Shown here: piece after piece, positions 5,335-41,775 of the stretch | Layout: every line of letters begins with the position of its first letter | Numbering within the stretch: the stretch's first letter is position 1 | Assembly (NCBI GenBank): GCA_016218625.1 | Contig: JACRDL010000009.1 | Span: 1 to 53,246 of the forward strand | Direction: 5' to 3' | Source: Elusimicrobiota bacterium | Lineage (GTDB): Bacteria; Elusimicrobiota; UBA8919 | Length of the DNA: 53,246 nucleotides | The notes under the pieces: generated by a model | What the model saw: only the letters and a program-made list of their open reading frames with translations | Told to the model about the DNA's origin: nothing | The model's database searches: none | Made by a program: the position numbers and the translations under genes

Positions 5335-5425
5335 ATCGGAATTTGAAAGGCGCCACAGAATTACACAGAAAAAAGCACAGAAATAACTTCTGTGAAATTC
5401 TGTGACATTCTGTGGTTTATCTTGA
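5335..5425. repeat. CACAGAA/TTCTGTG inverted tandem-repeat element, near-identical to 38377-38470
   Basis: atcggaattt.aaaggcgccacagaa..acacagaa..cacagaaataacttc.gtg.aattctgtga.attctgtgg..atcttga at both sites. Confidence 0.9.
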
Positions 5426-5443
5426 CAGAGGGAGGAAAAAAGT

Positions 5444-6220
5444 ATGAAATTTCAGCAAGTAAGAGAATCGCAGATTACCCGTGCAATAACGGGCGAGTTT
5501 AATAAATGGTTTCAGGAATACATTGTTTCGGATGTTGTTATCGTCGGAGGCGGTCCAAGCGGGCTTATTGCCGCATATGACCTTTGCCGACAAGGTGTTA
5601 AAACATTGATTGTTGAAAGCAACAACTACATCGGTGGCGGTTTCTGGATTGGCGGATATTTGATGAACACCCTCACATTTCGCGCACCGTCGCAGGAAAT
5701 ACTTGACGAGTTGCACATCCCGTATAAGAAAGTAGATAGTGGACTGTTTACAGCCGACGGTCCGCATGCATGTTCGCGGTTGATTCTTGCCGCTTGTGAA
5801 TCTGGCGCCCGTATTCTTAATATGACGAAGTTTGACGATGTTGTATTAAAAAACAATAGAGTTTGCGGTGCGGTAATCAATTGGACTCCAGTTGCAGCAT
5901 TACCTCGTGCCATAACCTGCGTTGACCCCGTTGCGATAGAGTCCGATGTTGTTGTTGACGCTACCGGTCACGATGCGCATATTTGCAAGTCACTTCAAAA
6001 AAGGGGCTTATTGACGATGAAGGATTTCGGGTATATGAATGTCGGGGAATCCGAGGATATGGTTGTTGAAAAAACAGGCGAGATATTTCCTGGACTTTTT
6101 GTATGTGGAATGAGTGTATCAACGGTATTTGGTATTCCGAGGATGGGTCCAACATTCGGAGGAATGCTTTATTCCGGCAGAAAAGTTGCGGAGGAAATTA
6201 TTAAGACACTTAAAAAATAA
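5444..6220 (+). CDS. thi4: Thi4-family thiazole synthase, Cys type
   Basis: GGGPSGL, GGGFWIGG, TCVDP, DATGHD, PRMGPTFGGM; TPP riboswitch upstream. Confidence 0.93.
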   Translation: MKFQQVRESQITRAITGEFNKWFQEYIVSDVVIVGGGPSGLIAAYDLCRQGVKTLIVESNNYIGGGFWIGGYLMNTLTFRAPSQEILDELHIPYKKVDSGLFTADGPHACSRLILAACESGARILNMTKFDDVVLKNNRVCGAVINWTPVAALPRAITCVDPVAIESDVVVDATGHDAHICKSLQKRGLLTMKDFGYMNVGESEDMVVEKTGEIFPGLFVCGMSVSTVFGIPRMGPTFGGMLYSGRKVAEEIIKTLKK

Positions 6221-6412
6221 GTTACCAAAAAAGTTCCTGTCTCTGTGTAATAGTTGCTTAAACCTATTTTTTGTCCCGTAAAACGGGATAAAAAACATCC
6301 TACGGCCAGCCCATCGTGACGGACTGGATTAACCCCGCCCACACAAACTACACATGATAATCGGTGGTCTTTTTTTATTGGGTAGTTGAAAAAAATCAAT
6401 TAATATTATAAA

Positions 6413-7348
6413 ATGTATAAAATAATGGAAAAAATTAACAAATCCGAAATAAATTTATTGCTGGACCTGCCATTACCAGAAATAATATCCCATGCTAACG
6501 AAGTGAGAAAAAAAAGAGTGGGTAATAATCTGGAATTATGCAGTATAATGAATGCTAAGTCAGGACTTTGTAGTGAGGATTGTAAATTCTGCGCTCAATC
6601 ATCTCGGCATTCCACCAACATACCTGTATATCCTCTTAAAAAGAAAAGCGAAATTATAGAAGTAGCGTATAACGCGAAAAAAAATGGTGCAAAAAAATTT
6701 GGAATTGTTACAAGTGGCGATTGTTTAAACGAGAAAGAGTTGGATTTAATTTCAGAATCAATATATGAGATAAAAGATAGGGTTGGTATAGACGTTTGTG
6801 CTTCATTAGGTGCATTAAAAAAACAGGAATTATCTGTATTAAAAAAAGCCGGTCTTATCCGTTACCATCACAACATAGAAACTTCACCGCGTTTTTATTC
6901 TGAAATTGTTTCTACACATACTTTTGAAGAAAGAATAGCCACTATTTATACGGCTAAAGAAGTTGGACTTGAAGTATGTAGCGGTGGAATAATTGGTATG
7001 GGTGAAACATGGCAGGATCGTCTTGATATGGCGGTAATATTGAAAAAACTGGAAGTAGATTCTGTCCCGATTAATCTTTTGGTCCCTATTAAAGGAACAC
7101 CATTGGAATCAATAAACCCGATATCCTGTGTTGATGCCATAAGAACACTTTGCGTTTTCAGAATTATATTAGAAGATAAAATTATAAAAATTGCTGCTGG
7201 TAGGGAAACAATCTTAAAAGATTTTCAGGCAATGGCTTTTATGGCCGGGGCAAATGGAATGCTTGTTGGCGGGTACTTGACTATCAAAGGAAGAGATATA
7301 TCCGAGGATTGGAATCTTATTAAAGAAATAGAAAATATATATGTTTGA
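6413..7348 (+). CDS. bioB: Biotin synthase
   Basis: CSEDCKFC radical SAM motif, YHHNIET, CSGGIIG. Confidence 0.95.
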   Translation: MYKIMEKINKSEINLLLDLPLPEIISHANEVRKKRVGNNLELCSIMNAKSGLCSEDCKFCAQSSRHSTNIPVYPLKKKSEIIEVAYNAKKNGAKKFGIVTSGDCLNEKELDLISESIYEIKDRVGIDVCASLGALKKQELSVLKKAGLIRYHHNIETSPRFYSEIVSTHTFEERIATIYTAKEVGLEVCSGGIIGMGETWQDRLDMAVILKKLEVDSVPINLLVPIKGTPLESINPISCVDAIRTLCVFRIILEDKIIKIAAGRETILKDFQAMAFMAGANGMLVGGYLTIKGRDISEDWNLIKEIENIYV

Positions 7349-10634: not shown

Positions 10635-10638
10635 TAGC

Positions 10639-15582: not shown

Positions 15583-15775
15583 TAACCACAGATGGACACA
15601 GATAAGACACAGCAAAGCAGTGCTGCTACGCTGCATACCGCGGAAAAATCCCCGATAGAACCATTCGGGGACAGGCTCCAGAACAGAGACACGGAAAAAT
15701 TTCAGTGCTTCCGTAATTCAGTGCTTCAGTGGTAAATGTTTTTAATCTGTGTTCATCAGTGTTAATCTGTGGTTA
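15583..15775. repeat. Nested inverted tandem-repeat elements
   Basis: Outer cacagat/atctgtg arms; middle element matches 22355-22433; inner tccccga..tcgggga hairpin. Confidence 0.8.
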
Positions 15776-19963: not shown

Positions 19964-21236
19964 CATACTAGTCGGGTTTGCATTTGTGTTCGTTATGCCG
20001 TATTTTATCTGGCGGTATAAACTTGCTGCTTTTGATAAAATGGCTCTCGGCATAAAACAGCGTCTGGGGTTTTATGATATTGAAAAGGGAAAAGATATTT
20101 TAATTCATGCTTCATCTGTCGGCGAGTTGAAAACCATAACGATGTTTATTGAAAAATTGAAAAAAATGTTTCCTGGAAAAAAAATTCTTATATTAACAAT
20201 GACACCATATGGTTATAAATATGTTCTTGACAAAAAAATTGCCGATAAGGTTGTTTTTGCTCCGATTGATGTTCCATTTTGCGTTGAAAAATTATTTTTA
20301 AGGGTTATACCGGAGATGCTTATTCTTGTTGAGAGCGAACTTTGGCCGAATCTGATTTTTTCAGTCGCAAGGAAGGGTGCAAAAATTGTCTCAATTAATG
20401 CAAGGATGTCTGATAAAAGTTTTCGCAGATATTTGTTCGTAAAAGAGTTTATGGCGGAAATTCTGAAAAATATAGATTTTATTTGTGCCCGTGAGGAATC
20501 CGACAGAAATAAATTTATTGCTTTGGGATATGATGAAAAAAAGGTGATAAAAACCGGTAATATGAAATATGATAAAATTGAAACCGTTTCTACAAAAAGA
20601 AGTATAACAAACAAGGATTTCGGTTTTACCGATACCGATTTGATTTTTGTAGCAGGCAGCACCAGAGAGCAGGAAGAAGAAATAGTAATAAATGTTTATA
20701 AAAAATTGGCAGAGGAGTTTTCAAACTTAAAACTGACAATTGCGCCTCGTTATCCGGAAAGGTGCCAAGATGTAGAAAAAATTTTACAAAAAGAAAACAT
20801 ATCGTTTATCCGCAAATCCCAACTCCCCACTCCCCACTCCCTACTTCCCGCTTCCCGCTGCCTTTTGCTTGACACCATCGGAGAACTTACCGATGCCTAT
20901 TCAATAGGAACCATTACTTTCGTCGGCGGGAGTTTGTTTGACGGTGCCGGCGGGCATAATATGTTAGAGCCGGCGGAACTTGGCAAGACAGTTATCTTCG
21001 GTAAATTTGTCAAAAATTTTCAAGAGTCGGCTGAATTATTGATTTTACAAAAAGCAGCATTTCAGGTAAGCGATGAAAAAGAGTTTTGTAATTCCGCCCG
21101 CAGATTACTAATTGATGCAAAATTAAGAGATGAAATGGGAAAACGGGCAAAGGAAGTTGTCGTCAGCCGTCGCGGTGCAACCGATAAGAGCCTAAAAATC
21201 ATTTCGGAGATAATAAAAGATGATGCAAACAGATAA
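19926..21236 (+). CDS. waaA: 3-deoxy-D-manno-octulosonic acid (Kdo) transferase
   Basis: HASSVGE, ESELWPN, GSTRE, APRYPER, GGHNMLEP. Confidence 0.9.
   Translation: MRRFLLSVLLVYNILVGFAFVFVMPYFIWRYKLAAFDKMALGIKQRLGFYDIEKGKDILIHASSVGELKTITMFIEKLKKMFPGKKILILTMTPYGYKYVLDKKIADKVVFAPIDVPFCVEKLFLRVIPEMLILVESELWPNLIFSVARKGAKIVSINARMSDKSFRRYLFVKEFMAEILKNIDFICAREESDRNKFIALGYDEKKVIKTGNMKYDKIETVSTKRSITNKDFGFTDTDLIFVAGSTREQEEEIVINVYKKLAEEFSNLKLTIAPRYPERCQDVEKILQKENISFIRKSQLPTPHSLLPASRCLLLDTIGELTDAYSIGTITFVGGSLFDGAGGHNMLEPAELGKTVIFGKFVKNFQESAELLILQKAAFQVSDEKEFCNSARRLLIDAKLRDEMGKRAKEVVVSRRGATDKSLKIISEIIKDDANR
20817..20858 (+). repeat. 6x7-nt tandem repeat in frame in waaA
   Basis: tcccaac tccccac tccccac tccctac ttcccgc ttcccgc. 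Confidence 0.9.
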
Positions 21237-21302
21237 AGGACTGATGTAGACAGATTAAAAATCTGTTTGAATCTGGCAGTTATCCGTTTGAATCGTTGTT
21301 AA
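21217..21302. repeat. ACAGAT/ATCYGT inverted tandem-repeat element, same family as 30872-31060
   Basis: gatgcaaacagataaa ... atccgtttgaatcgttgttaa at both sites. Confidence 0.85.
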
Positions 21303-21309
21303 GGAAAAA

Positions 21310-22354: not shown

Positions 22355-22433
22355 TACCACGGAGACACGGAAGGACGGAAACACAGAAAAAATTTTTAAT
22401 TCCGTGCTTCCATAATTCAGTGCTTCAGTGGTA
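22355..22433. repeat. CACGGA/TCMGTG inverted tandem-repeat element
   Basis: taccacggagacacggaag.. / ttccgtgcttccataattcagtgcttcagtggta; second copy at 15636-15734. Confidence 0.85.
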
Positions 22434-22469
22434 AGGTTTTGACATTACCGAAGTTTTCTTGGAAAAAAT

Positions 22470-26732: not shown

Positions 26733-26750
26733 TATAGAGAGGAAAGTTAA

Positions 26751-28562
26751 ATGAACAAACAGTTAAAAAATGTAGCACTATGGATGTTGATAATCGTGGG
26801 TTTTATTTATCTATGGCAGATTTCGTCAGAAAAAGCAAAAGAGGTTGAACTTACCTATTCGGAGTTCAAGCAGTTTGTAAAAGAAAAAAAGGTTTCAGAT
26901 ATAGTTATTTCACCCGATTTGATTTCAGGTGCTTTAGAAAAAGATGGTAAAAGTTTTAAGTTTAAGGCGGTTCCTGTTGCAGACAACAAACTTGTGGAAG
27001 ATTTAGAAAACAATCAGATAAAATACAAGGGACAGAAAAACCGCGGGTGGTTTATTGAACTTCTCTTAAGTATTGTGCCATGGATATTAATTGCGGCTAT
27101 ATGGTATTTTCTGTTTTTCCGCGGTGCCTCAATGGGCGGCAAACAGATTTTTTCATTTGGAAGGAGTAAAGCCCGCCTTCAGTCGGACAAAAAAACCAAA
27201 ACAACATTTGCCGATGTCGCGGGTGTGGAAGAATCAAAAGAAGAGTTAAAAGAGATAATACAGTTTTTGAAGGACCCCGCTAAATTTCAGAAATTAGGCG
27301 GAAAAATTCCCAAAGGTGTCTTGCTGGTGGGACCTGCTGGCACGGGAAAAACACTCCTTGCGAAAGCGGTCGCAGGTGAGGCAGGGGTTCCGTTTTTTTC
27401 GTCAAGCGGCTCCGAATTCGTCGAAATGTTCGTAGGTGTGGGTGCTTCCCGTGTTCGTGATCTGTTTGATATGGGAAGAAAAAATGCCCCCTGCGTTTTA
27501 TTTATTGATGAAATTGATGCCGTCGGTCGTCACAGAGGAGCAGGTTATGGCGGCGGCCACGACGAACGGGAGCAGACGCTTAATCAATTACTGGTAGAAA
27601 TGGACGGGTTTGAAACAAAAGAGGGTGTTATAATCCTTGCCGCTACAAACCGTCCTGATGTTCTTGATTCCGCACTTCTCCGTTCGGGAAGGTTTGACAG
27701 ACACATTGTTGTCCCGGTTCCGGATATAAAAGGCAGAGAAGAAATTTTACGGGTCCACGCAAAAAATGTAAAATTTTCTCCGTCGGCGGACTTATCCGTT
27801 ATTGCAAAAAGAACGCCCGGTTTTGTAGGTGCGGATTTGGCTAATTTGATAAACGAAGCGGCACTTTTGGCTGCCCGCCGCGATAAAGAGGTCGTTGAAA
27901 TGCCGGAACTTGAAGAAGCGATTGATAGAGTCCAGGCGGGTCCCGAACGGCGTTCCAGAAAAATTTCCGAAAAAGAAAAAAAGATTATAGCATACCATGA
28001 ATCTGGACACGCACTTGTTGCAAAACTTATGCCGAATACGGAGCCGGTTCATAAAATTTCTATAATTCCGAGAGGTATGGCATTGGGTTATACGATTCAA
28101 CTTCCTACTGAGGATAAATATCTGATAACCAAATCGGAGATAATTGCCAAACTGACGGTCTTGCTCGGTGGCCGCGCTGCCGAAAAAATTATTTTTAACG
28201 AAATAACAACAGGTGCGGAAAATGATTTGAAAGTTGCAACATCCATGGTCCAGAATATGATTTGTCTTTACGGTATGTCTGATAAATTGGGTAATGTATC
28301 ATTGCGAAAAAGGGAAGAAGAGGTGTTTTTGGGACGGGATATATTCGCCCATGAAAAACTTTATTCCGAAAAAACGGCACAGCAGATTGATGATGAAACA
28401 AAAAAAATAATTGACGAGGCATTCATTAAAGCGACTGAATTGATAAAAAACAACATTGAAAAACTGAATCGTCTTGCCGAAAAACTTGTTGAAAAAGAAA
28501 TCCTGGAAGGCGATGAACTTGCAAAATTGTTAAACGGTGACACGGAACAGACACGGAAGTAA
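26751..28562 (+). CDS. ftsH: ATP-dependent zinc protease FtsH
   Basis: Two TM segments, [19 protein letters not shown]. Confidence 0.97.
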
Positions 28563-28630
28563 GGAACACAGAACAGACACAGAACAGTTCCGAGTCAGTT
28601 CTGTGTATAAGTTCCGAGTCGGTTCAGTGT
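28539..28630. repeat. ACACRGAAC/GTTCYGWGT inverted tandem-repeat element overlapping the ftsH stop
   Basis: gacacggaacagacacggaa..acacagaacagacacagaac / gttccgagtcagttctgtgt..gttccgagtcggttcagtgt. Confidence 0.8.
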
Positions 28631-28636
28631 ATTCAA

Positions 28637-29200: not shown

Positions 29201-29204
29201 TAAT

Positions 29205-30005: not shown

Positions 30006-30786
30006 AATTCTAATAAATATAATTGATATTCTGCTTTTATCCTATATTTTTTACCGTTTAATAGTTCTTATTAAGGGAACCCGTGCCGTTCAGGTGTTTC
30101 TGGGAATTATTGTTCTGGGACTTATAACGGCGGTGTCAATTTATCTTAAACTTGAGACAACATCATGGCTACTTAAAAATTTCTGGTCGGCAGGACTTGT
30201 TATCTTAGTGGTTGTATTTCAGCCGGATATCCGTTCGGCGCTCGCCCAACTCGGCAGCGGAGAACTAACCCATTTGTTTATAAAAGAAGAAATTGTCGCC
30301 ATAAAAGAAATCGTTTCCGCCGTGAAAGAATCTTCGCATAAAAAAATCGGAATGCTTATCGTTATTGAACAGCAGACAGGACTAAAAGATATTATTGAAA
30401 AAGGGATAAAAATCAACGCTGACATATCGCATGAACTTTTAATTTCAATTTTTAATCCCCGAACGCCTCTTCACGACGGTGCGATTGTGATATCGGGTTC
30501 AAAAATTGTAGCGGCGGCATGCGTTCTTCCTTCAACCGAAAATCCGGCAATATCGAAATTTCTTGGGATGCGTCATCGTGCGGCCATCGGCATAACTGAG
30601 GTTTCAGACGCCTTTGTAATTATTGTTTCCGAAGAGACCGGAAGTATTTCAATTTCTCATAACGGTAAACTTGAAAAAGACATTGAGATAAATAATCTTG
30701 AACAACTCTTGTTTAATATATGGAACAAACAGGAAAAACATTTTTTTAAGAGGAGAACAAGCGACAGTGAAAATCGACTGGCTTAA
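29995..30786 (+). CDS. cdaA: Diadenylate cyclase CdaA/DacA
   Basis: Three TM segments, PLHDGA, GMRHRAA, VSEETG. Confidence 0.93.
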   Translation: MLTEILINIIDILLLSYIFYRLIVLIKGTRAVQVFLGIIVLGLITAVSIYLKLETTSWLLKNFWSAGLVILVVVFQPDIRSALAQLGSGELTHLFIKEEIVAIKEIVSAVKESSHKKIGMLIVIEQQTGLKDIIEKGIKINADISHELLISIFNPRTPLHDGAIVISGSKIVAAACVLPSTENPAISKFLGMRHRAAIGITEVSDAFVIIVSEETGSISISHNGKLEKDIEINNLEQLLFNIWNKQEKHFFKRRTSDSENRLA

Positions 30787-30865
30787 AAAAAACTTGGACA
30801 TAAAAATTCTCTCCGTCTTACTTGCGGTGCTGTTGTGGTTTATAAAACAGAAACTTGGCAAATAA
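30767..30865 (+). CDS. 32-aa peptide resembling the N-terminal TM helix of CdaR/YbbR
   Basis: GTG start with aggag upstream; MKIDWLKKNLDIKILSVLLAVLLWFIKQKLGK; between cdaA and glmM; not in the ORF track. Confidence 0.7.
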   Translation: MKIDWLKKNLDIKILSVLLAVLLWFIKQKLGK

Positions 30866-30871
30866 AAAATG

Positions 30872-31060
30872 AGACGATGCAAACAGATAAAAGACCGATT
30901 CAGACAGATGAGAAACACGGATGAAAACGGATGGAGTCACGGATTCAGAAAAAGACGACGCAAACGGATAAAAGCGCGGATGTAAACGGATTTTTATCTG
31001 TCTGAATCTGCGCCATTATCCGTCTGAATCGTAGTTATAATCCGTTTGAATCGTTGTTAA
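30872..31060. repeat. Expanded ACRGAT/ATCYGT inverted tandem-repeat element
   Basis: Many cagat/cggat units followed by atctg/atccg units; same ends as 21217-21302. Confidence 0.85.
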
Positions 31061-31061
31061 T

Positions 31062-32393
31062 ATGAAAAAACTTTTTGGTACCGACGGTATTAGAGGCATT
31101 GCAGGCAAGTATCCTCTTGAACCAGATTTCATAAAAAAAATAGGTTCTGCCGCTGCGGTAATAATTAACGATTCCTCAAAAAAAGAATTTATTTTAGGGT
31201 GTGATACCCGGGAATCATCCTCATGGATTTCAAAAGCATTGTGCGACGGTATAATGGCTGCGAGTGTTGATGTTTTTGATTGCGGGGTTGTTCCTACCCC
31301 TGCTGTTGCTTATATCACAACAATAAGGGACTCATCAGCCGGCTGCGTTATTTCAGCGTCTCATAATTCAGCAGAGTTTAACGGCATAAAATTTTTTTCA
31401 AATGAAGGAATTAAAATCTCAGACGACAACGAACTTGAAATTGAAAAACTTGTTTTAAGCAAAAATTTTAATAAAAGTGAGAAACCCGTAGGTAAATATA
31501 GTGTTTGCGATAATTATGCGGATGATATATATACGAAATTTTTATACTCAACACTCCCAAAAAATTTTGATTTAAGCGGATTAAAAATTGTCCTTGATTG
31601 CGCCAACGGTGCAAACTATAAAATTGCGTCTGAGGTTTTTTCAAATCTTTCGGCGGAAATAATAGCATTATCCGTTTCACCCGACGGTAAAAATATAAAC
31701 AAAAATTGCGGTTCGTTACATCTTAAAAATTTAGAACATTCCGTCGTTGAAAATAATGCCGACTTCGGAATTGCCTTTGACGGCGACGGCGACAGATGTA
31801 TTTTTGTGGATGAAACCGGCGATGTTCGGGACGGTGATTATCTAATCGCGATTGCCGCCGATGAACTTAATAAAAACGGAGAACTTAAGAATAATTCCGT
31901 GGTCGCTACGGTTATGGCAAATTTCGGATTTTACAAAGCGATGGAGCGTGACGGTATAAAAGTGTTAGAGAGTGCCGTCGGCGACAAATATGTACATAGT
32001 GAAATGATTAAAAACGATATAATTTTAGGCGGTGAGCAGTCGGGACATATAATTTTCAGAAATTTTTTAAATACAGGCGACGGGCTTTTGACAGCGATTC
32101 AAATTTCAGCCATAATAAAAAAAAGTAAAAAATCATTATCTGAATTATCAAAAATCATAAAAAAATATCCTCAAATTTTATTAAATGTAAGGGTTGAAAA
32201 AAAGATTCCTATTGTCGAGAATAAAAAACTGTCCGATGTAATAAAATCTGTTGAGAAAAAGCTCAACAGTAACGGCAGAGTGCTTGTGAGATATTCCGGT
32301 ACAGAACCGCTTTTAAGAATTATGGTTGAAGGTCCCGACGATAAAACAATAAACCGATACGCACAAGAAATTGCCTCTATCATTAATTTTTAA
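31062..32393 (+). CDS. glmM: Phosphoglucosamine mutase
   Basis: FGTDGIRG, ISASHN, DGDGDR, GGEQSGH. Confidence 0.95.
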   Translation: MKKLFGTDGIRGIAGKYPLEPDFIKKIGSAAAVIINDSSKKEFILGCDTRESSSWISKALCDGIMAASVDVFDCGVVPTPAVAYITTIRDSSAGCVISASHNSAEFNGIKFFSNEGIKISDDNELEIEKLVLSKNFNKSEKPVGKYSVCDNYADDIYTKFLYSTLPKNFDLSGLKIVLDCANGANYKIASEVFSNLSAEIIALSVSPDGKNINKNCGSLHLKNLEHSVVENNADFGIAFDGDGDRCIFVDETGDVRDGDYLIAIAADELNKNGELKNNSVVATVMANFGFYKAMERDGIKVLESAVGDKYVHSEMIKNDIILGGEQSGHIIFRNFLNTGDGLLTAIQISAIIKKSKKSLSELSKIIKKYPQILLNVRVEKKIPIVENKKLSDVIKSVEKKLNSNGRVLVRYSGTEPLLRIMVEGPDDKTINRYAQEIASIINF

Positions 32394-32404
32394 TTGTTTT
32401 TACT

Positions 32405-33124
32405 ATGGTAAAACTTGGCGTTAATATTGACCATATCGCATCAATAAGAAATTTAAGAAAGGGTGTTTTTCCAGATCCGGTTTTTGCAGCGAAAATTGCC
32501 GAAGATGCCGGAGCCGATGGAATTACCGTGCATCTTCGCGAGGACAGAAGACATATAAATGATGGTGATGTAAAAAATCTTAAAAGGATTATAAAAACAA
32601 AACTGAACCTTGAAATGTCCGTATCTGCCGACATAGTTGCTTTTGCAAAAAAAATAGTTCCTGATTATGTCTGCCTTGTTCCAGAAAAAAGACAGGAACT
32701 CACGACCGAAGGCGGACTTGATATTATATCTAATAAAAAAAAAATTGAAGAAGTCGTTAGCGAACTTAAAAATAAAAAAATTGTTGTAAGTATTTTTATT
32801 GACCCCGATTTTGAACAGATAAACATTGCAAAAAAAATAGGTGCGGATTTTGTTGAACTTCACACCGGAAATTATGCTGATGCTAAAAATAAGATTATTA
32901 GGAAAAAAGAACTTGCGAAAATTCAAAAAGCGTCTGAATATGTTTTGCAACTTGATTTAGGGCTTAATGCAGGGCACGGACTTGATTATGAAAATGTTCA
33001 GGGTATTGCCAAAATTAGAGGGATGAATGAACTCAACATAGGTTATTCAATAATCTGCCGTGCTGTTTTTGTCGGGTTTTTTCAGGCGGTAAAAGAGATG
33101 AAAGAAAAAATTAAAAATAAATGA
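32405..33124 (+). CDS. pdxJ: Pyridoxine 5'-phosphate synthase
   Basis: LGVNIDH, HLREDRRH, TTEGG, AGHGL. Confidence 0.96.
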   Translation: MVKLGVNIDHIASIRNLRKGVFPDPVFAAKIAEDAGADGITVHLREDRRHINDGDVKNLKRIIKTKLNLEMSVSADIVAFAKKIVPDYVCLVPEKRQELTTEGGLDIISNKKKIEEVVSELKNKKIVVSIFIDPDFEQINIAKKIGADFVELHTGNYADAKNKIIRKKELAKIQKASEYVLQLDLGLNAGHGLDYENVQGIAKIRGMNELNIGYSIICRAVFVGFFQAVKEMKEKIKNK

Positions 33125-33423
33125 AAAAACTGATTCTTATTTTGATTGTTGTTTTAGTCGGTCTATATTTTGCAACTGATTATTTCAAAAAGCAGTCAAA
33201 AATATCCCAAAAGATTACGCAAACGATAAAGACACCGACGGACAAAGCATCCGAAATTGTAAGAACTGAAAATTTAAGAATTTTGGAAAATGCCGTCAAA
33301 AGATACAAATATGAAAAAGGAAAATTTCCGGAAACGCTTGATGAAATGGTATCTTCAGGATATATTGACAGAATTCCGGAAGGCAACTGGGAGTATGATA
33401 TAACAACGGGAGAGGTGAGATAG
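33121..33423 (+). CDS. Small membrane-anchored protein with GspG/ComGC-like C-terminal segment
   Basis: N-terminal TM; AVKRYKYEKGKFPETLDEMVSSGYI. Confidence 0.55.
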   Translation: MKKLILILIVVLVGLYFATDYFKKQSKISQKITQTIKTPTDKASEIVRTENLRILENAVKRYKYEKGKFPETLDEMVSSGYIDRIPEGNWEYDITTGEVR

Positions 33424-33426
33424 GGA

Positions 33427-33501
33427 CAATTACAGAAGGAAAAAGGAAGATGGAAGATTAAAGTCGTTAATTTGCAATTTTCCTTTTGCAATTTGTAATT
33501 G
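33427..33501. repeat. Degenerate heptamer inverted repeat
   Basis: caattacagaaggaaaaaggaagatggaagatt / aatttgcaattttccttttgcaatttgtaattg. Confidence 0.65.
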
Positions 33502-33509
33502 ATTTTATC

Positions 33510-35339
<1,830 letters not shown>

Positions 35340-35364
35340 AAAACGCAATTTTTTAAAAAAGTAC

Positions 35365-35393
35365 TTGACAAAATGCAATTTTTTAGGTATAAA
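35365..35393 (+). promoter_or_regulatory. Sigma70 promoter of the Flp/Tad cluster
   Basis: TTGACA-17-TATAAA, with TATAAT at 35394. Confidence 0.65.
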
Positions 35394-35402
35394 TATAATG
35401 GG

Positions 35403-35573
35403 ATGATAGGGCTGATAAAAAATCTTGTTAAATCTGAAACTGCTGCTGCAGATACCGAGTATTCTCTGCTCATTCTTTTACTTGTTGCTTCAATATTAGC
35501 ATTAAGAGTTTTTTCAACCGTGCTGAATGCTGTTTTGGTTAAAGCCGCTGTAAGGATAACAGGCGTTGTATAA
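35403..35573 (+). CDS. Flp-like pilin 1, divergent
   Basis: SETA/AADTEY plus hydrophobic helix; 56 aa. Confidence 0.65.
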   Translation: MIGLIKNLVKSETAAADTEYSLLILLLVASILALRVFSTVLNAVLVKAAVRITGVV

Positions 35574-35749
35574 TGAAGATTACAAATTATAAATTACGAA
35601 TTACGAATAAAGGTCAGTCAATGACGGAATATCTGCTTGTTGCTTTTTTGATTTCGTTTGCGGTTTTTCAAGCGGTTAATACATTCGGAAAAGCACTCAA
35701 TGTTGCTTTTTTACAGGCAATAAATAATATTGCCGTCAACATAAAATGA
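35573..35749 (+). CDS. Flp pilin 2
   Basis: MKITNYKLRITNKG/QSMTEYLLV..; 58 aa, read by hand. Confidence 0.85.
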   Translation: MKITNYKLRITNKGQSMTEYLLVAFLISFAVFQAVNTFGKALNVAFLQAINNIAVNIK

Positions 35750-35759
35750 GGTAAATAAA

Positions 35760-35945
35760 ATGAAAACGATCCGTTTTAAAAAAGGTCAAGGGATGACTGA
35801 GTATGTATTGATGATTTTTCTTATTGCTTTTCTCGCATATATTGCTGTTGAAACATTCGGTAAAAAAATAAGATACGGATTTCTTTCCGCCGGGAACAAG
35901 GTTTCTGGAATTTGCAATGCCGAAACACCGGGGATTTATAAATAA
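35760..35945 (+). CDS. Flp pilin 3
   Basis: KKG/QGMTEYVL plus hydrophobic helix. Confidence 0.88.
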   Translation: MKTIRFKKGQGMTEYVLMIFLIAFLAYIAVETFGKKIRYGFLSAGNKVSGICNAETPGIYK

Positions 35946-36011
35946 TTTTTAAGAATATATCTAATCAAAATGAAGTTCATTTAATTTGTATGAAAGGGGG
36001 GTGAAAAAAAG

Positions 36012-36182
36012 ATGTTAAAACGGTTATTGAAGAACGAGAGAGCGCAGGGAATGACAGAATATGTTCTGGTTGTATTTCTTATTGCTCTTCTCGCATTTGT
36101 GGCGGTACAGTTGTTCGGCGGCAAAGTGAAAAATGCGTTTAATAAAGCCGGAACAAAACTTGACCAGGCAACGAAGAAGTAA
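36012..36182 (+). CDS. Flp pilin 4, probable major pilin
   Basis: MLKRLLKNERA/QGMTEYVLVV..FGGKV; very strong SD; 56 aa, read by hand. Confidence 0.88.
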   Translation: MLKRLLKNERAQGMTEYVLVVFLIALLAFVAVQLFGGKVKNAFNKAGTKLDQATKK

Positions 36183-36201
36183 TATAATTAGGTTTTTTTA
36201 A

Positions 36202-36253
36202 TGTACGGAGATTCGCTTTCTGTGTAATATACGCAATGGCGAATTTCTGCACA
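36202..36253 (+). other. Long hairpin after Flp pilin 4, possible mRNA-stability or attenuation structure
   Basis: tgtacggagattcgc .. gcgaatttctgcaca. Confidence 0.55.
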
Positions 36254-36300
36254 GGTTTTGCTTATCTGAAAAAGTATAAGAAATTTTTTTATTTCTGTTT

Positions 36301-36468
36301 ATGAACTATTTCAATAAGAAAGGTCAAGCAATGACCGAGTATGTATTGGTTCTTATGCTATGCGTCATAACCGCATGGGTAGGAACCAATTTTTTTCAGA
36401 GACGATTGAAAAATGTCTACAGCGGTGCATCCCGTACCCGTGCAGGTGTTCAAGGAATGTATCCGTAA
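36301..36468 (+). CDS. Flp pilin 5
   Basis: MNYFNKKG/QAMTEYVLVL..; 55 aa, read by hand. Confidence 0.85.
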   Translation: MNYFNKKGQAMTEYVLVLMLCVITAWVGTNFFQRRLKNVYSGASRTRAGVQGMYP

Positions 36469-36497
36469 AAAGGCAAGTTAAAAGTTAAAGGTTAAAA

Positions 36498-36992
36498 GTG
36501 AGAAGTAAAAAACTAAAAATTATTACTCGCTACTCGCTACTCACTACTCGCTCAAAAGGTCAGACACTTATTGAGTTTGTTCTGATTGCTATTATTTCGA
36601 TTGCGCTTATTTTCGGAGTAATGGACCTTGCGCGGCTTTCATGGACGATGTTTCATCTACACGGCGCCGCATTTGCCGCCGCCAGAGCGGAAGCAGTCAG
36701 AAAAAGCGGATTTACGGCGGCAAACTATGTTACGATGAGAACGCTCGGCGGACACTGCCTTGTTTCTGTAAATAAATCGCATGAAGTACCGTCGCATAAT
36801 CCACCGTGGACAGTTCCTGGAGTCGCATTAAAGAAAGATGATGTAAGAATTTACGCTATTAACGCAACTGTTACATATTTATATAGACCGCTTTTTGCAG
36901 CCGGAGCATTTAAAACAGGTGTTATACCATTAAAGGTTTCGTCACGAATGCAGACGGAAATCCCGAATCCGATACCGCAATCAAGAAATTAA
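36498..36992 (+). CDS. TadE-like pseudopilin
   Basis: KG/QTLIEF, hydrophobic helix, AAFAAAR, VTYLY. Confidence 0.85.
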   Translation: MRSKKLKIITRYSLLTTRSKGQTLIEFVLIAIISIALIFGVMDLARLSWTMFHLHGAAFAAARAEAVRKSGFTAANYVTMRTLGGHCLVSVNKSHEVPSHNPPWTVPGVALKKDDVRIYAINATVTYLYRPLFAAGAFKTGVIPLKVSSRMQTEIPNPIPQSRN

Positions 36993-36994
36993 AA

Positions 36995-37867
36995 ATGAAA
37001 AAATTACTTTTTACTCACTACTCGCTACTCGCAACTCGCTCAAAGGGACAAATTCTTCCGCTTGTTGCTCTGACGGTGCTGGTGCTTTCTATGTTTTCGT
37101 TTCTTGTTTGGAATCTCGGTATGCTTGAATTTAACCGTCAGAAAATGCAGACCGCCGCCGATGCCGCCGCAATATCCGCCTTAAGATGCCGCGCAGCTTT
37201 TTACAATGCGATGGGAATTTTACATGATACAATGCATCTTGATACCATATGGATGGGGCATAATATAAAAAAAGGTGTTATGGAAAAAAACCAGATTCCG
37301 TTATATGAAGCAAATCTTACAGCGCTTAAAAAACTGAATTGGGGTGCTGGCGGTGGGTCCGCATTAACAGCAGGAAGTGCCGCAAAATTAAATGGTGCTG
37401 ATAAACCTTACGGTTTCGGAGGGTTTGTTAAGGGTGGTAAAGGAACAGGACTTAAAGGCAGAAAGATGACATTTTATTCAGGTAATGTTAAGGTTATATA
37501 TCCAGTACCGCCTTTTATACTGGTACTTCCGCCATATAAAAAAAAGACATATAATCCTGCTTATTATTGCAGAACCTGGGAAGATAAATACAGAAAAGCC
37601 CAGCCGAAACAGGAGTTTATGTGGACGGTGAAAAAAAAGAATCAGACCTTTGCAACATCTTTGATTGGGTTAAAAAAACCTGCAGAGGCACGGGCAGTTG
37701 CACAGGCGAAAATTTACTTAAATGTGAGAGGAAATGCTATCGGACACAACGGCGGTTTCCCGAGAAATAAAAAAGAAGGACTATGGGGTTGGGGTCCAGA
37801 ACCATATGCCGGTTATCCGCAGTTTGATGCACGGCTTGTGCCTGTTCGCGGAGTAATGCTACATTAA
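36995..37867 (+). CDS. TadG-like pseudopilin
   Basis: KG/QILPL, MQTAADAAA. Confidence 0.82.
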   Translation: MKKLLFTHYSLLATRSKGQILPLVALTVLVLSMFSFLVWNLGMLEFNRQKMQTAADAAAISALRCRAAFYNAMGILHDTMHLDTIWMGHNIKKGVMEKNQIPLYEANLTALKKLNWGAGGGSALTAGSAAKLNGADKPYGFGGFVKGGKGTGLKGRKMTFYSGNVKVIYPVPPFILVLPPYKKKTYNPAYYCRTWEDKYRKAQPKQEFMWTVKKKNQTFATSLIGLKKPAEARAVAQAKIYLNVRGNAIGHNGGFPRNKKEGLWGWGPEPYAGYPQFDARLVPVRGVMLH

Positions 37868-37869
37868 AA

Positions 37870-38373
37870 ATGAAACCACAGATTACACAGATAAAAAACA
37901 TAGATTACACAGATGTCATTGCGAGGGCGAAGCCCGTGGCAATCTTGAGATTGCTTCGTTTCACTCGCAATGACAAAAAAGGTCAGGCGTTTGCAGAGTT
38001 TATTATCGCACTAATTGTGCTTCCGTTGTTTATCACAGGTACAATTACAATTGCGAGAATGTTTATTGTTAATATGCGGCTTCATCAGGCGGCAAGACAC
38101 GGTGCGTTTCTGATGGCGACGCAACGGGTTACAAAAACTAATATGCTGGACGAAGTAAAAAAATACTTTAGTGCGGGGTATCCTAAATTTGAGACATCAA
38201 AAATCAAAATTGTACATAAAAGCAAACGGGTCGGCTTGATAAAAGGTGACGAAGTAACCGTTAGTTATACGATGAAGGTTTTTGATTTAAGCCGTCTTTC
38301 GTTCTGGAAGGGCACACCGAAAATAGAAAAAAGATTCACACAATCTGCCGTTTGCGGCAGGGCTGCTTTTTAG
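37870..38373 (+). CDS. TadE-like pseudopilin with repeat-derived leader
   Basis: KKG/QAFAEF, QAARHGA, VTVSY. Confidence 0.82.
   Translation: MKPQITQIKNIDYTDVIARAKPVAILRLLRFTRNDKKGQAFAEFIIALIVLPLFITGTITIARMFIVNMRLHQAARHGAFLMATQRVTKTNMLDEVKKYFSAGYPKFETSKIKIVHKSKRVGLIKGDEVTVSYTMKVFDLSRLSFWKGTPKIEKRFTQSAVCGRAAF
37914..37975. repeat. REP/RPE-like palindrome
   Basis: tgtcattgcgag..gcaatcttgagattgc..ctcgcaatgaca. Confidence 0.9.
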
Positions 38374-38376
38374 AGT

Positions 38377-38470
38377 ATCGGAATTTCAAAGGCGCCACAG
38401 AAAGACACAGAAAAAAACACAGAAATAACTTCAGTGTAATTCTGTGAAATTCTGTGGCTAATATCTTGAT
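38377..38470. repeat. CACAGAA/TTCTGTG element, copy 2
   Basis: Near-identical to 5335-5425. Confidence 0.9.
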
Positions 38471-38858
38471 GAAAATCAGCGAAATCTTTTTAATTGTTTT
38501 TATTATGACACTTTTTATAGGTGTCTATTTTTTTGTGCAGAAAAAAATTATAAATCCCCCGGAGAAAAAAATTGAAACTGTTATTCAGCTGAAAGTTGAT
38601 GTTATGGAACAGCAGATGGGGTATTATGAAAAAAATGCGGACAAGCTAACTGCACGGGAAGAGAAAAAAATCAAAAAAATGCAGAAGGAAATTGACGCCG
38701 CAAAACCCTACATTAAACAGGCAGAGGACTACTACCAAAAAGAATACGGATACATATTAAAACTCCCACTGAAACAGCAGGAAAAAGAAATGAAAAAACT
38801 TGTTGAAAAAAAACGAAAAGAAACAGAAAAATACAAAAAGTACTTGCCGAGCCATTAA
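38469..38858 (+). CDS. Membrane-anchored charged helical hypothetical protein
   Basis: One TM followed by K/E-rich helices; ATG overlaps the element end. Confidence 0.65.
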   Translation: MKISEIFLIVFIMTLFIGVYFFVQKKIINPPEKKIETVIQLKVDVMEQQMGYYEKNADKLTAREEKKIKKMQKEIDAAKPYIKQAEDYYQKEYGYILKLPLKQQEKEMKKLVEKKRKETEKYKKYLPSH

Positions 38859-38918
38859 TTAAAATCCATAAATTTTTGCTTGACTTTTATTATTTTTTTT
38901 ATATGATATTTACAGTTT

Positions 38919-38994
38919 CAGGATTAAGGATTAAGTCGCTTCGCTTTAAGAATTAAGTTTTTGCTTAATCCTTACAACTTATTACTTAATCCTG
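38919..38994 (-). repeat. GGATTAA/TTAATCC heptamer element, reverse orientation
   Basis: Close to the reverse complement of 47007-47090; contains gtcgcttcgc. Confidence 0.88.
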
Positions 38995-39011
38995 ACATTA
39001 ATGGGGGTTTT

Positions 39012-39593
39012 ATGGATGATAAACCGAAATACAAAAGGAGAATTGTAATTATCAAAAGGGCGCTGCAGTTTAAGTATATTGCTGTTGTTCTTATTGCTAT
39101 GGTTCTGGTCGCTTTTACCGTCGGATGGGATGTCTATTATACCGTAGGTCGCGCAATTATGGAATTAGAAGCCCCGGGTTTATATCCGATTATGGTTAAA
39201 ATCAACAATCTTATGCTCGGAAAACTTGCGGTTCTTCTGGTAATTGTCTTCATAATTGCCATTTTTGTTTCGCATAAGTTTGCAGGTCCCATATTTAAGT
39301 TTGAGCGTTCCTGCGATACGGTTGCCGAAGGTGACCTGACTTACAGGGTGCATTTAAGAAGCGGCGACGAACTTATTGAACTTCAGAATAAATTTAACGG
39401 AATGGTTTCGGAAATTCAGAAAAAAGTTTCAGCAGATTATGAATCGGCAAAAATCACAGGAGTTAAACTTTCGGCAATTTCCGCAAGGCTTTCACAGAAA
39501 AATGTATCGCCCGCTGAACTTTCCGAAATTTTGGGGCAGATTGACGGATTAATCGCCCAATTGAATAAAATATCGTCGGGCTTTAAGATTTAG
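39012..39593 (+). CDS. Two-TM HAMP-domain protein
   Basis: LQFKY, two TM segments, SHKFAGP..GDL..LRSGDEL; start moved out of the repeat. Confidence 0.78.
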   Translation: MDDKPKYKRRIVIIKRALQFKYIAVVLIAMVLVAFTVGWDVYYTVGRAIMELEAPGLYPIMVKINNLMLGKLAVLLVIVFIIAIFVSHKFAGPIFKFERSCDTVAEGDLTYRVHLRSGDELIELQNKFNGMVSEIQKKVSADYESAKITGVKLSAISARLSQKNVSPAELSEILGQIDGLIAQLNKISSGFKI

Positions 39594-39600
39594 ATTAAAC

Positions 39601-39732
39601 CAGGATTAAGGATTACTTTCAGGATTAAGAATTAAGTTATAAGGATTAAGAAAAGACAAAAAAAACTTAATCCTTAAAGCGAAGCGACTTAATCCTTACT
39701 ACTGTTCACTTACGACGTATCACTTAATCCTG
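39601..39732 (+). repeat. GGATTAA/TTAATCC heptamer element
   Basis: caggattaaggatta.. / cttaatccttaaagcgaagcgacttaatcc..cttaatcctg. Confidence 0.88.
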
Positions 39733-39743
39733 CCATTACAATT

Positions 39744-41021
39744 ATGTATCTTGAATTATTTCTTATATCATTGTCGGTTTTAATAGGGATTTATTTTTTC
39801 AACAGATACAAATCCCAGTTAAAACAGTTGTTTAATATAAAAAAGGAAATGGGTGATGTAAAAGAGAAGTATGTAAACAGTGTTGCTGCCGTCGATAATC
39901 TCATCAACATGCTTATAGAACTTCACAACTTCGGACTGAAATACTCGCCGAGTCATAACAAGCAAACCCTTTCCAAAATGATAGTTGATTACGCGGTAAA
40001 GGTCTTAAAAACCAGTATCGGTTCTTTAATGTTGATTGATGAAACAACAAATGAACTTGTAATTGTCGCCGCGAGAGGACTTGCAAAAGATGTTATGGAC
40101 ACAACGCGGCTTAAAATCGGCGAAGGTATAGCAGGACTTGTCGCTCGCGACGGGAATCCAATTTTTGTTGAAAATATAGAAACCGACCCGAGATTTTTCA
40201 AGGCGGAAAATGTTAAGTATCCGTCAAAATCGTTCATATCCGTTCCTCTCAAAATAAGAAATAAGGTTATAGGTGTCTTGAATGTCAACAGGGAAAAAGA
40301 AGGTGAAAAATTTGTTGAAAGAGATTTGCGGCTTTTGCAACTTCTCGCGGGTCAGGCGGCTATTACAATTGAAAACATTGAACTTTACCAGAATCTTCAG
40401 CGGCTTTACCTTGAGACGATGCAAACACTTGCAAAAGCAATTGACGCAAAAGATGCCTATACAAGAGAACACGCCGACCGTGCAGGATATTATGCGAAAC
40501 TTGTTGCCGAGGAACTGCATCTTCCAAAGACAATGGTAAAACATATTGAGTATGCTGCAATGATGCACGATGTGGGAAAAATAGGAATCAAAGAGGAGAT
40601 TTTACTGAAGGCGTCTAAACTTACCAATGCGGAAAGGGATGAAATAAGAAAACATCCTTTGATTGGTGAAAAAATAATCGCTCCCATTGAGTTTTTGGCG
40701 CCCATTGCACCTTTGATTCTTTATCATCACGAATGGTTTGACGGTACGGGTTACGGCGAGGGTTTGTTAGGCGAGGAAATTCCGATAGGTGCGAGAATCG
40801 TTGCGGTTATTGATTCATATGATGCGATGACATCGGACAGACCATATAGAAAAGCGTTATCTGATGAGATTGCAATTGATGAACTGAAAAGAGGTTCAGG
40901 GACGCAGTTTGACCCGAAAATTGTAAATGCTTTTTTGAAGGTTTTGGAGAATGAAAAAAATAAAAACGGTGAAAAAAAGACGGATAAGAATCAGGATTCA
41001 GCGGCTTCAAAATCCGACTGA
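39744..41021 (+). CDS. GAF plus HD-GYP phosphodiesterase-family protein
   Basis: GAF (GEGIAG, SVPL..IGVL), MHDVGKI, HHEWFDGTGYG, DSYDAMTSDRPYR. Confidence 0.9.
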   Translation: MYLELFLISLSVLIGIYFFNRYKSQLKQLFNIKKEMGDVKEKYVNSVAAVDNLINMLIELHNFGLKYSPSHNKQTLSKMIVDYAVKVLKTSIGSLMLIDETTNELVIVAARGLAKDVMDTTRLKIGEGIAGLVARDGNPIFVENIETDPRFFKAENVKYPSKSFISVPLKIRNKVIGVLNVNREKEGEKFVERDLRLLQLLAGQAAITIENIELYQNLQRLYLETMQTLAKAIDAKDAYTREHADRAGYYAKLVAEELHLPKTMVKHIEYAAMMHDVGKIGIKEEILLKASKLTNAERDEIRKHPLIGEKIIAPIEFLAPIAPLILYHHEWFDGTGYGEGLLGEEIPIGARIVAVIDSYDAMTSDRPYRKALSDEIAIDELKRGSGTQFDPKIVNAFLKVLENEKNKNGEKKTDKNQDSAASKSD

Positions 41022-41033
41022 AAATAAATTTTT

Positions 41034-41714
41034 ATGAGCGGGGTTCTTTATGTTGTTGCAACACCGATAGGTAATCTCAAAGATATTACATTAAGGGCAT
41101 TAGAAACGCTTAAAGTGGTTGATTTAATTGCCTGCGAAGATACCCGTCGGACAAAAATTTTGCTCATGCATTATGACATAGCAAAACCGCAGATAAGTTT
41201 TTACTCGCAAAACCAGTTCAGAAAAATACCCTATCTGATAGATGAGTTGAAAAAAGGAAAAAATGTTGCACTTGTTTCGGATGCGGGAACTCCGGGTATT
41301 TCAGACCCCGGATTTTTTCTTGTAAAAAACGCAATTGAGCAGGGTTTAAAGGTTGAAACCATTCCCGGTGTTTCTGCGGTTGTTACGGCACTTTCGGCCA
41401 GCGGATTGGCAACCGACGGATTTGTATTTTTGGGATTTCTGCCGAGAAAAAAAGGCAAAATTAGAAAAGTTTTACAAAAAGTTGCAGGACTTGAAAAGAC
41501 AATAATTTTTTACGAGTCACCGTACCGACTAAAAAAAACACTGAAAATAATTACAGAAATTTTTCCGCCGGCTACCGATATTGTTGTTTGTCGCGAACTT
41601 ACGAAAAAATTTGAGGAGTTTATCCGCGGAAATACCTCGGATATAATTGAAAAACTTCCTGAAAAAATTTTGGGTGAAATTACAGTTTTAATTTCTGTAA
41701 AGAACAAAGGATAA
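41034..41714 (+). CDS. rsmI: 16S rRNA C1402 2'-O-methyltransferase
   Basis: VATPIGNL, CEDTR, SDAGTP, RELTK. Confidence 0.94.
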   Translation: MSGVLYVVATPIGNLKDITLRALETLKVVDLIACEDTRRTKILLMHYDIAKPQISFYSQNQFRKIPYLIDELKKGKNVALVSDAGTPGISDPGFFLVKNAIEQGLKVETIPGVSAVVTALSASGLATDGFVFLGFLPRKKGKIRKVLQKVAGLEKTIIFYESPYRLKKTLKIITEIFPPATDIVVCRELTKKFEEFIRGNTSDIIEKLPEKILGEITVLISVKNKG

Positions 41715-41775
41715 GCCGCAGAAGGACACAGAACTTCACTGAATTTTTCTGTGCACTTCTGTGATATTCTGTGGC
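41715..41775. repeat. 9-mer CACAGAA/TTCTGTG inverted tandem repeat
   Basis: gccgcagaaggacacagaacttcactgaa / ttctgtgcacttctgtgatattctgtggc. Confidence 0.85.

Follow-up and report, generated by a model that had tools for sequence, protein, structure and literature searches.

The stretch of DNA analysed here, referred to as the window, is the entire 53-kb contig C106 of an Elusimicrobiota genome (G000), an assembly of 1.81 Mb in 124 contigs that is 86% complete and has 38% G+C. All sizeable open reading frames (ORFs) of the window lie on the + strand and have housekeeping functions. The genes include cysK, thrC, thi4, bio genes, a czc efflux system, kdtA, tilS, ftsH, folE, folP, cdaA, glmM, pdxJ, glmS, a Tad pilus set, argC, argJ, glyA, wecA, hisG and gltX. 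Twelve of the gene junctions are occupied by short palindromic elements in which an array of short tandem units is followed by the complementary array, and these elements are the subject of the present study. Protein-coding genes flank each of the twelve, and none lies in helix 25 or 45 of a 23S rRNA; an Rfam scan of the window gave tRNA only and no rRNA.

Hairpins at the junctions of the window

An earlier reading of the window made from its letters alone (the sequence-only reading) had described one shared design, namely a purine-rich tandem arm, a short spacer and then the complementary arm. A purine-rich run of short units, a short loop and complementary units could indeed be read at all 12 junctions. 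A tandem-repeat finder gave periods of 7-12 nucleotides (nt), and some compound periods of 19-24 nt. The order with the purine-rich arm first was seen as described, but it does not define a polarity, because the symmetry of a palindrome gives the same order on both strands; in the relative G004 the pyrimidine arm comes first. RNA folding was scored against 200 dinucleotide shuffles. It was found that 11 of the 12 elements fold as a single long segmented hairpin with z-scores of -4.1 to -8.5, and for these none of the 200 shuffles was equally stable. The exception is the element at 15586-15735 (z -1.9), for which 7 of 200 shuffles were equally stable. The three distant pairs that had been called closely similar proved to be real, with 90% identity over 92 nt for 5335/38377, 81% over 86 nt for 21217/30872 and 89% over 56 nt for 15636/22355. 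The elements fill the spacer from the stop codon of one gene to the ribosome-binding site or the start codon of the next.

All the elements described below are on the + strand. The hairpin at 5331..5424 belongs to the CACAGAA family and is one of its 65-74 copies. It has the left end ..AGCATCGGAATTTGAAAGGCG, three CACAGAA cores, three TTCTGTG cores and the right end TTTATCTTG, and it folds with -31.2 kcal/mol (z -8.5). It is placed between an element resembling a thiamine pyrophosphate (TPP) riboswitch, which has a terminator, and the Shine-Dalgarno sequence of thi4. The riboswitch-like element (5162-5292) matches the full length of the Rfam model with 40.2 bits (E 1.3e-6), which is below the gathering score of 54.3, and was missed by the default scan. 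A second CACAGAA-family copy, at 38373..38468 (z -6.2; 90% identical to 5330-5425), runs from the stop codon of a TadE-like gene to the ATG of the next gene. A short hairpin of CACAGAA type (GCCGCAGAAGG...TTCTGTGGC; z -6.2) lies at 41715..41775 between rsmI and argC. The element at 15586..15735, in the czcB-czcA junction, is composite: an orphan left arm of three CACAGAT units, a nested small hairpin (ccccgatagaaccattcgggg) that recurs in 2 of 66 CACAGAA-family copies, and a CACGGAA/TTCAGTG hairpin. The right arm of the latter resembles the element at 22355 (89% over 56 nt to 22350-22445). That element, a CACGGA-type hairpin at 22355..22437 (z -5.8), stands between an ORF of 342 amino acids (aa) and a ParA/MinD-like gene.

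At 21213..21302 a CAAACAGAT / ATCCGTTTG hairpin (z -4.4) was found, whose left arm forms the 3' end of the kdtA reading frame, including its stop codon. It is 81% identical to part of 30865-31065, where a long compound CAAACGGAT / ATCCGTTTG hairpin (30872..31062, inner part z -5.3), belonging to a family of 4 members, occupies the space from cdaA and a small downstream ORF to glmM. The CACGGAAC/CACAGAAC hairpin at 28539..28634 (z -5.6) fills the ftsH-folE junction. Its left arm encodes the ftsH tail ..DTEQTRK and the stop codon, the ATG of folE lies 3 nt past the element, and paralogues with 91-93% identity are present on contigs C58, C37, C46 and C104. Immediately 5' of glmS lies a GGAAG / TTGCAAT hairpin (33425..33505, z -5.6). 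Three hairpins are of the AGGATTAAG family. The one at 38915..38995 (inner word gtcgcttcgcttt; z -4.7), in a 7-member family, is upstream of a HAMP-domain gene, a long one at 39590..39735 (z -6.3) is 3' of the same gene, and the third, at 47007..47096 (z -4.1), extends from the stop codon of wecA to the next Shine-Dalgarno sequence.

Abundance, families and placement in the genome

Loci with at least 2 copies of a 6-mer followed by at least 2 reverse-complement copies within 120 nt (the 6-mer rule) were collected from the whole genome. There were 294 such loci as compared to 24 in a Markov-3 simulation, and a stricter 7-mer tandem rule gave 141 pairs as against 2 in its control. The elements are 60-190 nt long. 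BLAST clustering gave families of 74, 46, 14, 8 and 7 copies, and 96 of the 119 clusters were singletons. The largest is the CACAGAA family, with 74 members by clustering and 66 members with conserved asymmetric ends. These ends are not palindromic and read (G/T)AGYATCGGAATTTSAAAGGCG-CCACAGAA ... TTCTGTGG-CTTATCTTG. The pattern of the two termini occurs 65 times in G000, 37 times in G002, 7 times in G003 and 3 times in G008; it does not occur in the genus-mate G001 or in any of the other 26 relatives, and a reversed-pattern control gave 0 or 1 matches. A tcccgcaagcggga hairpin is nested in 8 of the 66 CACAGAA copies.

The view that the similar pairs reflect dispersal rather than local slippage is borne out by this family of 65-74 copies with conserved ends outside the repeats. 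Local replication slippage and palindrome formation at each junction without any dispersal would agree with the high share of singleton clusters, with nine solitary heptamer arrays of the window that have no partner arm, and with the repeat number, which differs among copies of the CACAGAA family. It is contradicted for the large families by their conserved non-repeat ends, and the same hairpin families occur at non-orthologous sites in other genera. The probability of slippage as the sole origin is close to negligible.

With respect to gene orientation, the occupied junctions were 243 co-directional, 13 convergent and 13 divergent (269) as against 1428, 76 and 74 available (1578). Intrinsic (Rho-independent) termination as a function of the hairpins was rejected, since there was neither an excess of U-tracts nor an enrichment at convergent junctions (13/269 vs 76/1578). 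A run of four T followed 25 of 243 hairpins and 70 of 695 baseline sites, and none of the 8 window hairpins in 21001-41000 carried a terminator flag on the + strand. It also counts against a terminator that the copy at 5331 lies past the terminator of the riboswitch-like element and before thi4. Of 57 CACAGAA copies in co-directional junctions, 46 are oriented with the genes and 11 against them. However, the leading strand carries 93% of the genes, and no more than 1 copy is informative, so this bias cannot be assigned to transcription as opposed to replication.

Gene-bearing cassettes and orthologous junctions

The sequence-only reading had suggested that arms of this kind often flank genes for GxxExxY nuclease-like or four-helix-bundle proteins. 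G000 contains one GxxExxY gene (PF13366) and four four-helix-bundle genes (PF05635); all but one of the latter, and the GxxExxY gene as well, were found between inverted tandem arms. The PF13366 gene (C19:46316-46639) lies between CACGGAA(C) arms, and its protein retains the D...ExK residues of PD-(D/E)XK nucleases. The PF05635 genes at C108:10141, C108:11027 and C15:16128 lie between GGAGATT, GGTGATA and TAGTTCA arms, respectively. The fourth has looser, AT-rich arms and stands beside a tRNA gene. Tandem heptamers are directly upstream of the four-helix-bundle ORF in both C108 cassettes, in the C15 cassette and in relatives; the window elements have the arms and no ORF. Four-helix-bundle cassettes directly follow tRNA genes at C75:6855-7166 of G000 and at locus L056 (G019 contig C152), and two CACAGAA copies (C60 copy 3 and C42:17855) follow tRNA 3' ends as well.

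A search with the 6-mer rule for arms 150-2500 nt apart was too noisy (1092 loci vs 663 in the control) and was replaced by the 7-mer rule. The distance between partner arms was then bimodal: 93 pairs were less than 150 nt apart, none was at 150-300 nt and 9 were at 300-500 nt. Four of these 9 pairs are the PF13366 and PF05635 cassettes; the other five are everted, with the pyrimidine arm first, and are read as a small ordinary gene with a separate hairpin on either side. The flanks of the C19 cassette align to positions 6-50 (84%) and 52-99 (88%) of the hairpin 28535-28636, with scores of 55 and 61 as compared to a shuffle maximum of 24. The two flanks are thus abutting halves of that hairpin, and the empty form is therefore the filled form minus the loop ORF. 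Among the 40 top-scoring gene copies of the relatives, 21 had exact arms with 2 copies per side, whereas mismatched flanks gave a mean of 1.5 and a maximum of 5.

The arms fall into classes which follow the enclosed gene. Units of the type CRCRRA (CACAGAA, CACGGAA, CACGAAT, CGCAGAT and similar) accompany GxxExxY genes and not four-helix-bundle genes; at least 2 reverse-complement CRCRRA words were found downstream at 14 of 20 GxxExxY loci as against 0 of 20 four-helix-bundle loci. The cores of CRCRRA-type hairpins in G000 are phased, their spacing being 10 nt in 80 of 119 intervals and 11 nt in 14, that is, one helical turn. The 3-nt spacers between the cores are unpaired in the folds, so that the stems consist of 7-bp helices with 3x3 internal loops. 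The association of arms and gene was also followed across phyla. For one GxxExxY protein the species collection yielded 186 relatives, of which the best 80, with 59-84% identity, were used; they are spread over Nitrospirota, Planctomycetota, Acidobacteriota and Proteobacteria and extend to ANME and Methanophagales archaea. CACAGAG was present upstream of 71 of the 76 relatives with complete flanks, with termini GCCACAGAG...CTCTGTGGC, and therefore the arms move with the gene. At loci L070-L149 a GxxExxY protein of an Elusimicrobia genus-mate is 84% identical to a Nitrospirae protein and 74% identical to ANME-2 and Methanophagales proteins, and arms of CACAGAG type accompany all of these proteins. 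This is a strong sign that they were transferred across phyla and domains.

Orthologous junctions were retrieved from 30 related genomes and compared; the genus-mate G001 is 94% complete. At the ftsH-folE junction the CACGGAAC hairpin of G000 corresponds to a decayed copy in G003, to spacers of 21-39 nt without any element in G001, G007 and G010, and to hairpins or palindromes of other sequence in G002, G004, G005, G006, G008 and G009. The cdaA-glmM junction has no element in G001, G003 and G010 and has other families in G002, G005, G008 and G009; in G002 and G008 a CACGAATA element is present which closely resembles the ftsH-folE element of G008. In G003 and G009 a four-helix-bundle gene between AAAGATT arms fills the pdxJ-glmS junction, which is empty in seven other genomes, with three different families in G000, G001 and G002 and others in G005, G007, G008 and G010. 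Some hairpin or cassette is thus present there in 9 of 9 syntenic genomes, and a filled cassette on contig C24 of G009 shares its arms with the empty hairpin of G007. In G003, AGGATTAAG arms, of the family seen at 38915 in the window, flank a four-helix-bundle gene.

The element of G000 was absent from G001 at 7 of 8 resolvable window junctions, the eighth having another family, and 7 of 7 further elements examined on C60, C42 and C94 were absent at the orthologous G001 sites. The site at 38373 is uninterrupted in G001 and G003 (..ctttttaATG..), the element of G000 lying between tta and ATG. The site at 47007 is uninterrupted in G001 (gtttaaCGGGGAG), and in G000 the element separates taa from the GGGGAG that belongs to the next gene. 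The element at 21213..21302 is absent from G001, G002 and G003. At 22355, G003 has no element (11-nt gap) and G002 has a larger insert; a 41-nt spacer replaces the 39590 element in G001; the 41715 element is absent from G001, and G003 has a different palindrome there. At one further junction both G000 and G003 carry four-helix-bundle cassettes. The tail of the upstream protein is identical, the arms are different and the enclosed proteins, compared by eye and without a score, are visibly very different; this suggests that one cassette has replaced another rather than that the arms have drifted.

Filled, empty, other-family and absent states were thus all found at orthologous junctions. The alternative that the arms never enclose genes and are fixed across relatives does not agree with these results, as arms do enclose genes and their presence varies. 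The arms are phased 7-nt cores, filled and empty forms share arm families, and gain, loss and replacement occur among species of one genus.

These comparisons also bear on whether the hairpins are selected mRNA structures of the host, such as processing signals, 3'-end stabilisers, attenuators, terminators or devices that maintain translational coupling by holding stop and start close together. Their exact placement in the stop-to-start spacers of co-transcribed genes, the occupation of pdxJ-glmS in all nine syntenic genomes, the orientation bias relative to transcription and the strong stems would suit such a role, and the stems of intervening sequences (IVS) in rRNA are RNase III substrates according to a published account (PMC4990558). 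It would be difficult to reconcile with the variable presence of the elements at junctions of essential genes within one genus, with a copy number that goes from 65 to 0 between genus-mates, with the lack of a U-tract excess and with convergent and divergent junctions being used as often as their numbers would predict. In addition, the spacers between the cores are unpaired, so maximal stem stability is not the conserved property. A host signal is therefore considered very improbable.

Taken as a whole, the data favour, with a probability of about 0.72, the interpretation that the junction hairpins belong, as members without a gene, to a family of small palindromic cassettes which carry a GxxExxY or an S23p-type four-helix-bundle ORF. 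Full-length members would have one small ORF exactly in the hairpin loop. The gene-less hairpins would be related to the full cassettes as miniature inverted-repeat transposable elements (MITEs) are related to full transposons. The earlier proposal that the junctions hold empty forms of a mobile cassette gains support from the arm families common to both forms and from the variable states at orthologous junctions.

Several observations weigh against this interpretation. The ORF-bearing copies number only 5, the empty ones about 294. At some loci a full hairpin is followed by an ORF and a right arm, or the ORF stands beside a hairpin, and such layouts also fit ORFs landing in hairpins. Filled and empty sites often differ by replacement of the spacer and not by a clean insertion. 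Among the GxxExxY relatives the count of exact arms (30 of 76) equals that of the mismatched-flank control (30.6), which is as high as the observed value because all 76 loci share one arm family, and at least 2 motif words were present downstream at only 39 of the 76 loci. G001 and G003 carry CRCRRA-type hairpins, yet no PF13366 gene was found in either, and therefore a nuclease in trans is not needed for persistence; four-helix-bundle cassettes occur without any nuclease. The Y1_Tnp genes of the genome, described below, could move the hairpins instead. The relatives are kin and not independent samples, the junction statistics are built on crude ORF calls, and the draft state of G000 should also be kept in mind.

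Possible mobility and related systems

Any movement of the elements, the enzyme responsible for it and what becomes of their RNA are what we infer from these patterns. No target-site duplication was seen by eye in comparisons of filled and empty sites at the window junctions and on C60, C42 and C94, and it is probable that the elements spread as DNA without such a duplication. The absence of a transposase, as claimed by the sequence-only reading, holds for the window according to family scans of its 50 ORFs of at least 100 aa, but not for the genome, which has four Y1_Tnp (IS200/RAYT-like) genes elsewhere (C9:14237, C9:3519, C2:9339 and C115:20529). No integron integrase was found among the same 50 ORFs, the window being the only part of the genome searched for it, and the window elements are scattered through housekeeping operons, unlike the attC cassettes of integrons, which form arrays beside an integrase gene and an attI site.

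The Y1 genes raise the question of repetitive extragenic palindromes (REPs). REP, BIME and REPIN elements with RAYT (Y1) transposases are extragenic palindromes in stop-to-start spacers, with no target duplication and with an orientation bias. Hairpins of this type would be moved single-stranded by Y1 transposases, and the GxxExxY and four-helix-bundle ORFs would be passengers in the loops and not parents. The elements described here share the placement in stop-to-start spacers, the lack of a visible target duplication and the orientation bias of 46:11 with REP-like elements, and Y1 genes are present in the genome. The left junction of the CACAGAA family could also be explained in this way. 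The left end is preceded by a T-rich word, ATTTTA, conserved to about 70%, and a word of this type already exists in the empty allele at 38373, C60 copy 1, C60 copy 3 and C94:10746. Three CACAGAA elements stand head to tail at C41:42885-43143, abutting as ..CTATCTTG|GAGTATCGG..; such tandem copies, and the ORFs lying beside complete hairpins, would fit as well. However, tandem-armed hairpins do not flank any of the four Y1 genes. Three of them have their own short inverted or direct palindromes, for example GGGGACGGAGGAAA and TAGGGACGGTTCTAAATT, and the fourth has none. It is with the GxxExxY and four-helix-bundle cassettes, rather than with a RAYT gene, that the hairpins have their arms in common, and arms and ORF occur together across phyla (71/76) with an arm class that tracks the ORF family (14/20 vs 0/20), which would be unexpected for passengers. 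Nor is the orientation bias assignable to replication. A REP-like origin appears improbable.

The closest published relative of the proposed cassettes is the ORF-bearing IVS of 23S rRNA. In Coxiella burnetii (PMC4990558), the IVS in helix 45 is 428 nt long, has a 28-bp terminal stem and is excised by RNase III; three tandem GACAGAT heptamers precede an S23p four-helix-bundle ORF. The repeat number varies between strains, and the element is called selfish by the authors. Leptospira, Brucella and Xanthomonas are named alongside Coxiella for ORF-bearing IVS in the same text (PMC4990558). The filled cassettes resemble this IVS in their inverted stem ends and in the tandem heptamers before the four-helix-bundle ORF, and the complementary ends and stable stem of an IVS are seen in 11 of the 12 window elements (z -4.1 or lower). 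They differ from it in lying between protein-coding genes, in being mostly without an ORF, in reaching hundreds of copies per genome and in having a second ORF family, the GxxExxY nuclease-like one, with its own arm type. Moreover, the CRCRRA stems are built of 7-bp helices and 3-nt internal loops and not of a near-perfect 28-bp stem as described there.

The arms of the proposed cassettes would pair in transcripts. Since the segmented stems have 3x3 internal loops, cleavage by RNase III cannot be assumed for them. It is possible, although this is said tentatively, that the continuous heptamer stems are cut by RNase III as in IVS, and that the segmented CRCRRA stems are more likely tolerated as read-through structures. 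It is rather doubtful, but conceivable from the helical-turn phase, that the CRCRRA arms could serve as arrays of recognition sites for a GxxExxY nuclease acting in trans.

The window elements resemble MITEs in being short and non-coding, with terminal inverted repeats and many dispersed copies, and the lineage-specific bursts (65 vs 0 in genus-mates) and the ends shared with rarer ORF-bearing elements add to this likeness. MITEs differ in that no target-site duplication was seen here, the arms are phased arrays of short cores and not a single terminal repeat, and the candidate parent encodes no known transposase family. Elements of the Correia/NEMIS and ERIC type are dispersed inverted repeats which are co-transcribed with the flanking genes and whose RNA hairpin may be processed; they have simple terminal repeats and a TA duplication. 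To our knowledge, no ORF-bearing form with the same ends exists for them. In a search of the literature, in which most subscription journals were not covered, no account of cassettes or hairpins of this kind at sites other than rRNA was found.

If the cassette interpretation is true, the ORF-bearing rRNA IVS, unexplained since the 1990s, would be one visible part of a much larger family. Such a family would lie mainly between ordinary genes, cross the borders of phyla and domains, and be able to shed its gene and multiply. The census of 294 loci over 1,578 crude gene junctions gives an idea of its extent. A still wider proposal, which we regard as unlikely, is an undescribed class of DNA transposons that spans phyla. 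It would have phased 7-nt cores at its ends, a GxxExxY PD-(D/E)XK protein as transposase or homing nuclease, no target duplication, insertion into stop-to-start spacers and gene-less copies in up to a fifth of the junctions of a small genome, and the 23S IVS would be one special landing site. The cassettes would give a testable context to PF13366 and PF05635, two very common families of hypothetical proteins, and the CRCRRA cores at a 10-nt phase offer defined DNA words for binding and cleavage assays. It should also be noted in annotation that C-terminal tails and stop codons, as in ftsH and kdtA, can come from a repeat. Spacers inside essential operons appear to be open to invasion without obvious harm.

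Some other repeats of the window deserve mention. The nine solitary tandem arrays have units of 7-9 nt and lie at 14561, 20813, 21630, 21800, 29774, 35579, 36524, 37012 and 43354. Eight of them have no complementary unit within 200 nt; the array at 21630 has one. Most are inside ORFs, such as CTTCTAC x4 in argJ and, at the 5' ends of two Tad genes, TACTCGC x4, and they may be half-cassettes or in-frame microsatellites. The array 36475-36555 does not fold (z -0.7). The Tad/Flp pilus cluster (35390-38373) has several small Flp-like ORFs (..GQGMTEYVL..) and three TadE/TadG-like genes, and heptamer arrays are present at the 5' ends of some of its genes. At 37873..37975 (+) an orphan left arm of four CACAGAT units (37873-37914) is followed by a GC-rich palindrome (gtcattgcgag...ctcgcaatgac) which folds (z -4.9), and this is not an arm-paired hairpin. 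The region is translated in frame as the start of a TadE-like ORF, in which the TadE domain begins only at residue 38. GC-rich palindromes nested in loops or arms were seen at 37914-37975 in the window and at C3:33554, C85:3942 and C109:8643. Several start with GTAG and end with CTAC, and they resemble a distinct family of REP type that is carried within the cassettes.

The 100-aa ORF at 33121-33423 was considered as a decayed four-helix-bundle gene, and this was rejected as it had no Pfam or NCBIfam hit; by eye its sequence is pseudopilin-like. The glmS gene (33486-35339) has an in-frame TAA at 35157-35159, which cuts its ORF off at position 546 of the 607 in the profile; past this codon the frame still encodes the 60 conserved residues of the C-terminus. 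The TAA could be a sequencing error, the mark of a pseudogene or a site of read-through. Between a DUF4032-like ORF and a PCC-domain ORF, at 47485-47626, lies another dispersed repeat (..tttgagacgctcgtc..ctgcaatttgctcc..gcaaattgaggctc..); it has four copies at 88-95% in G003, and similar sequence was observed in G006 at the cdaA and glmM contig ends.

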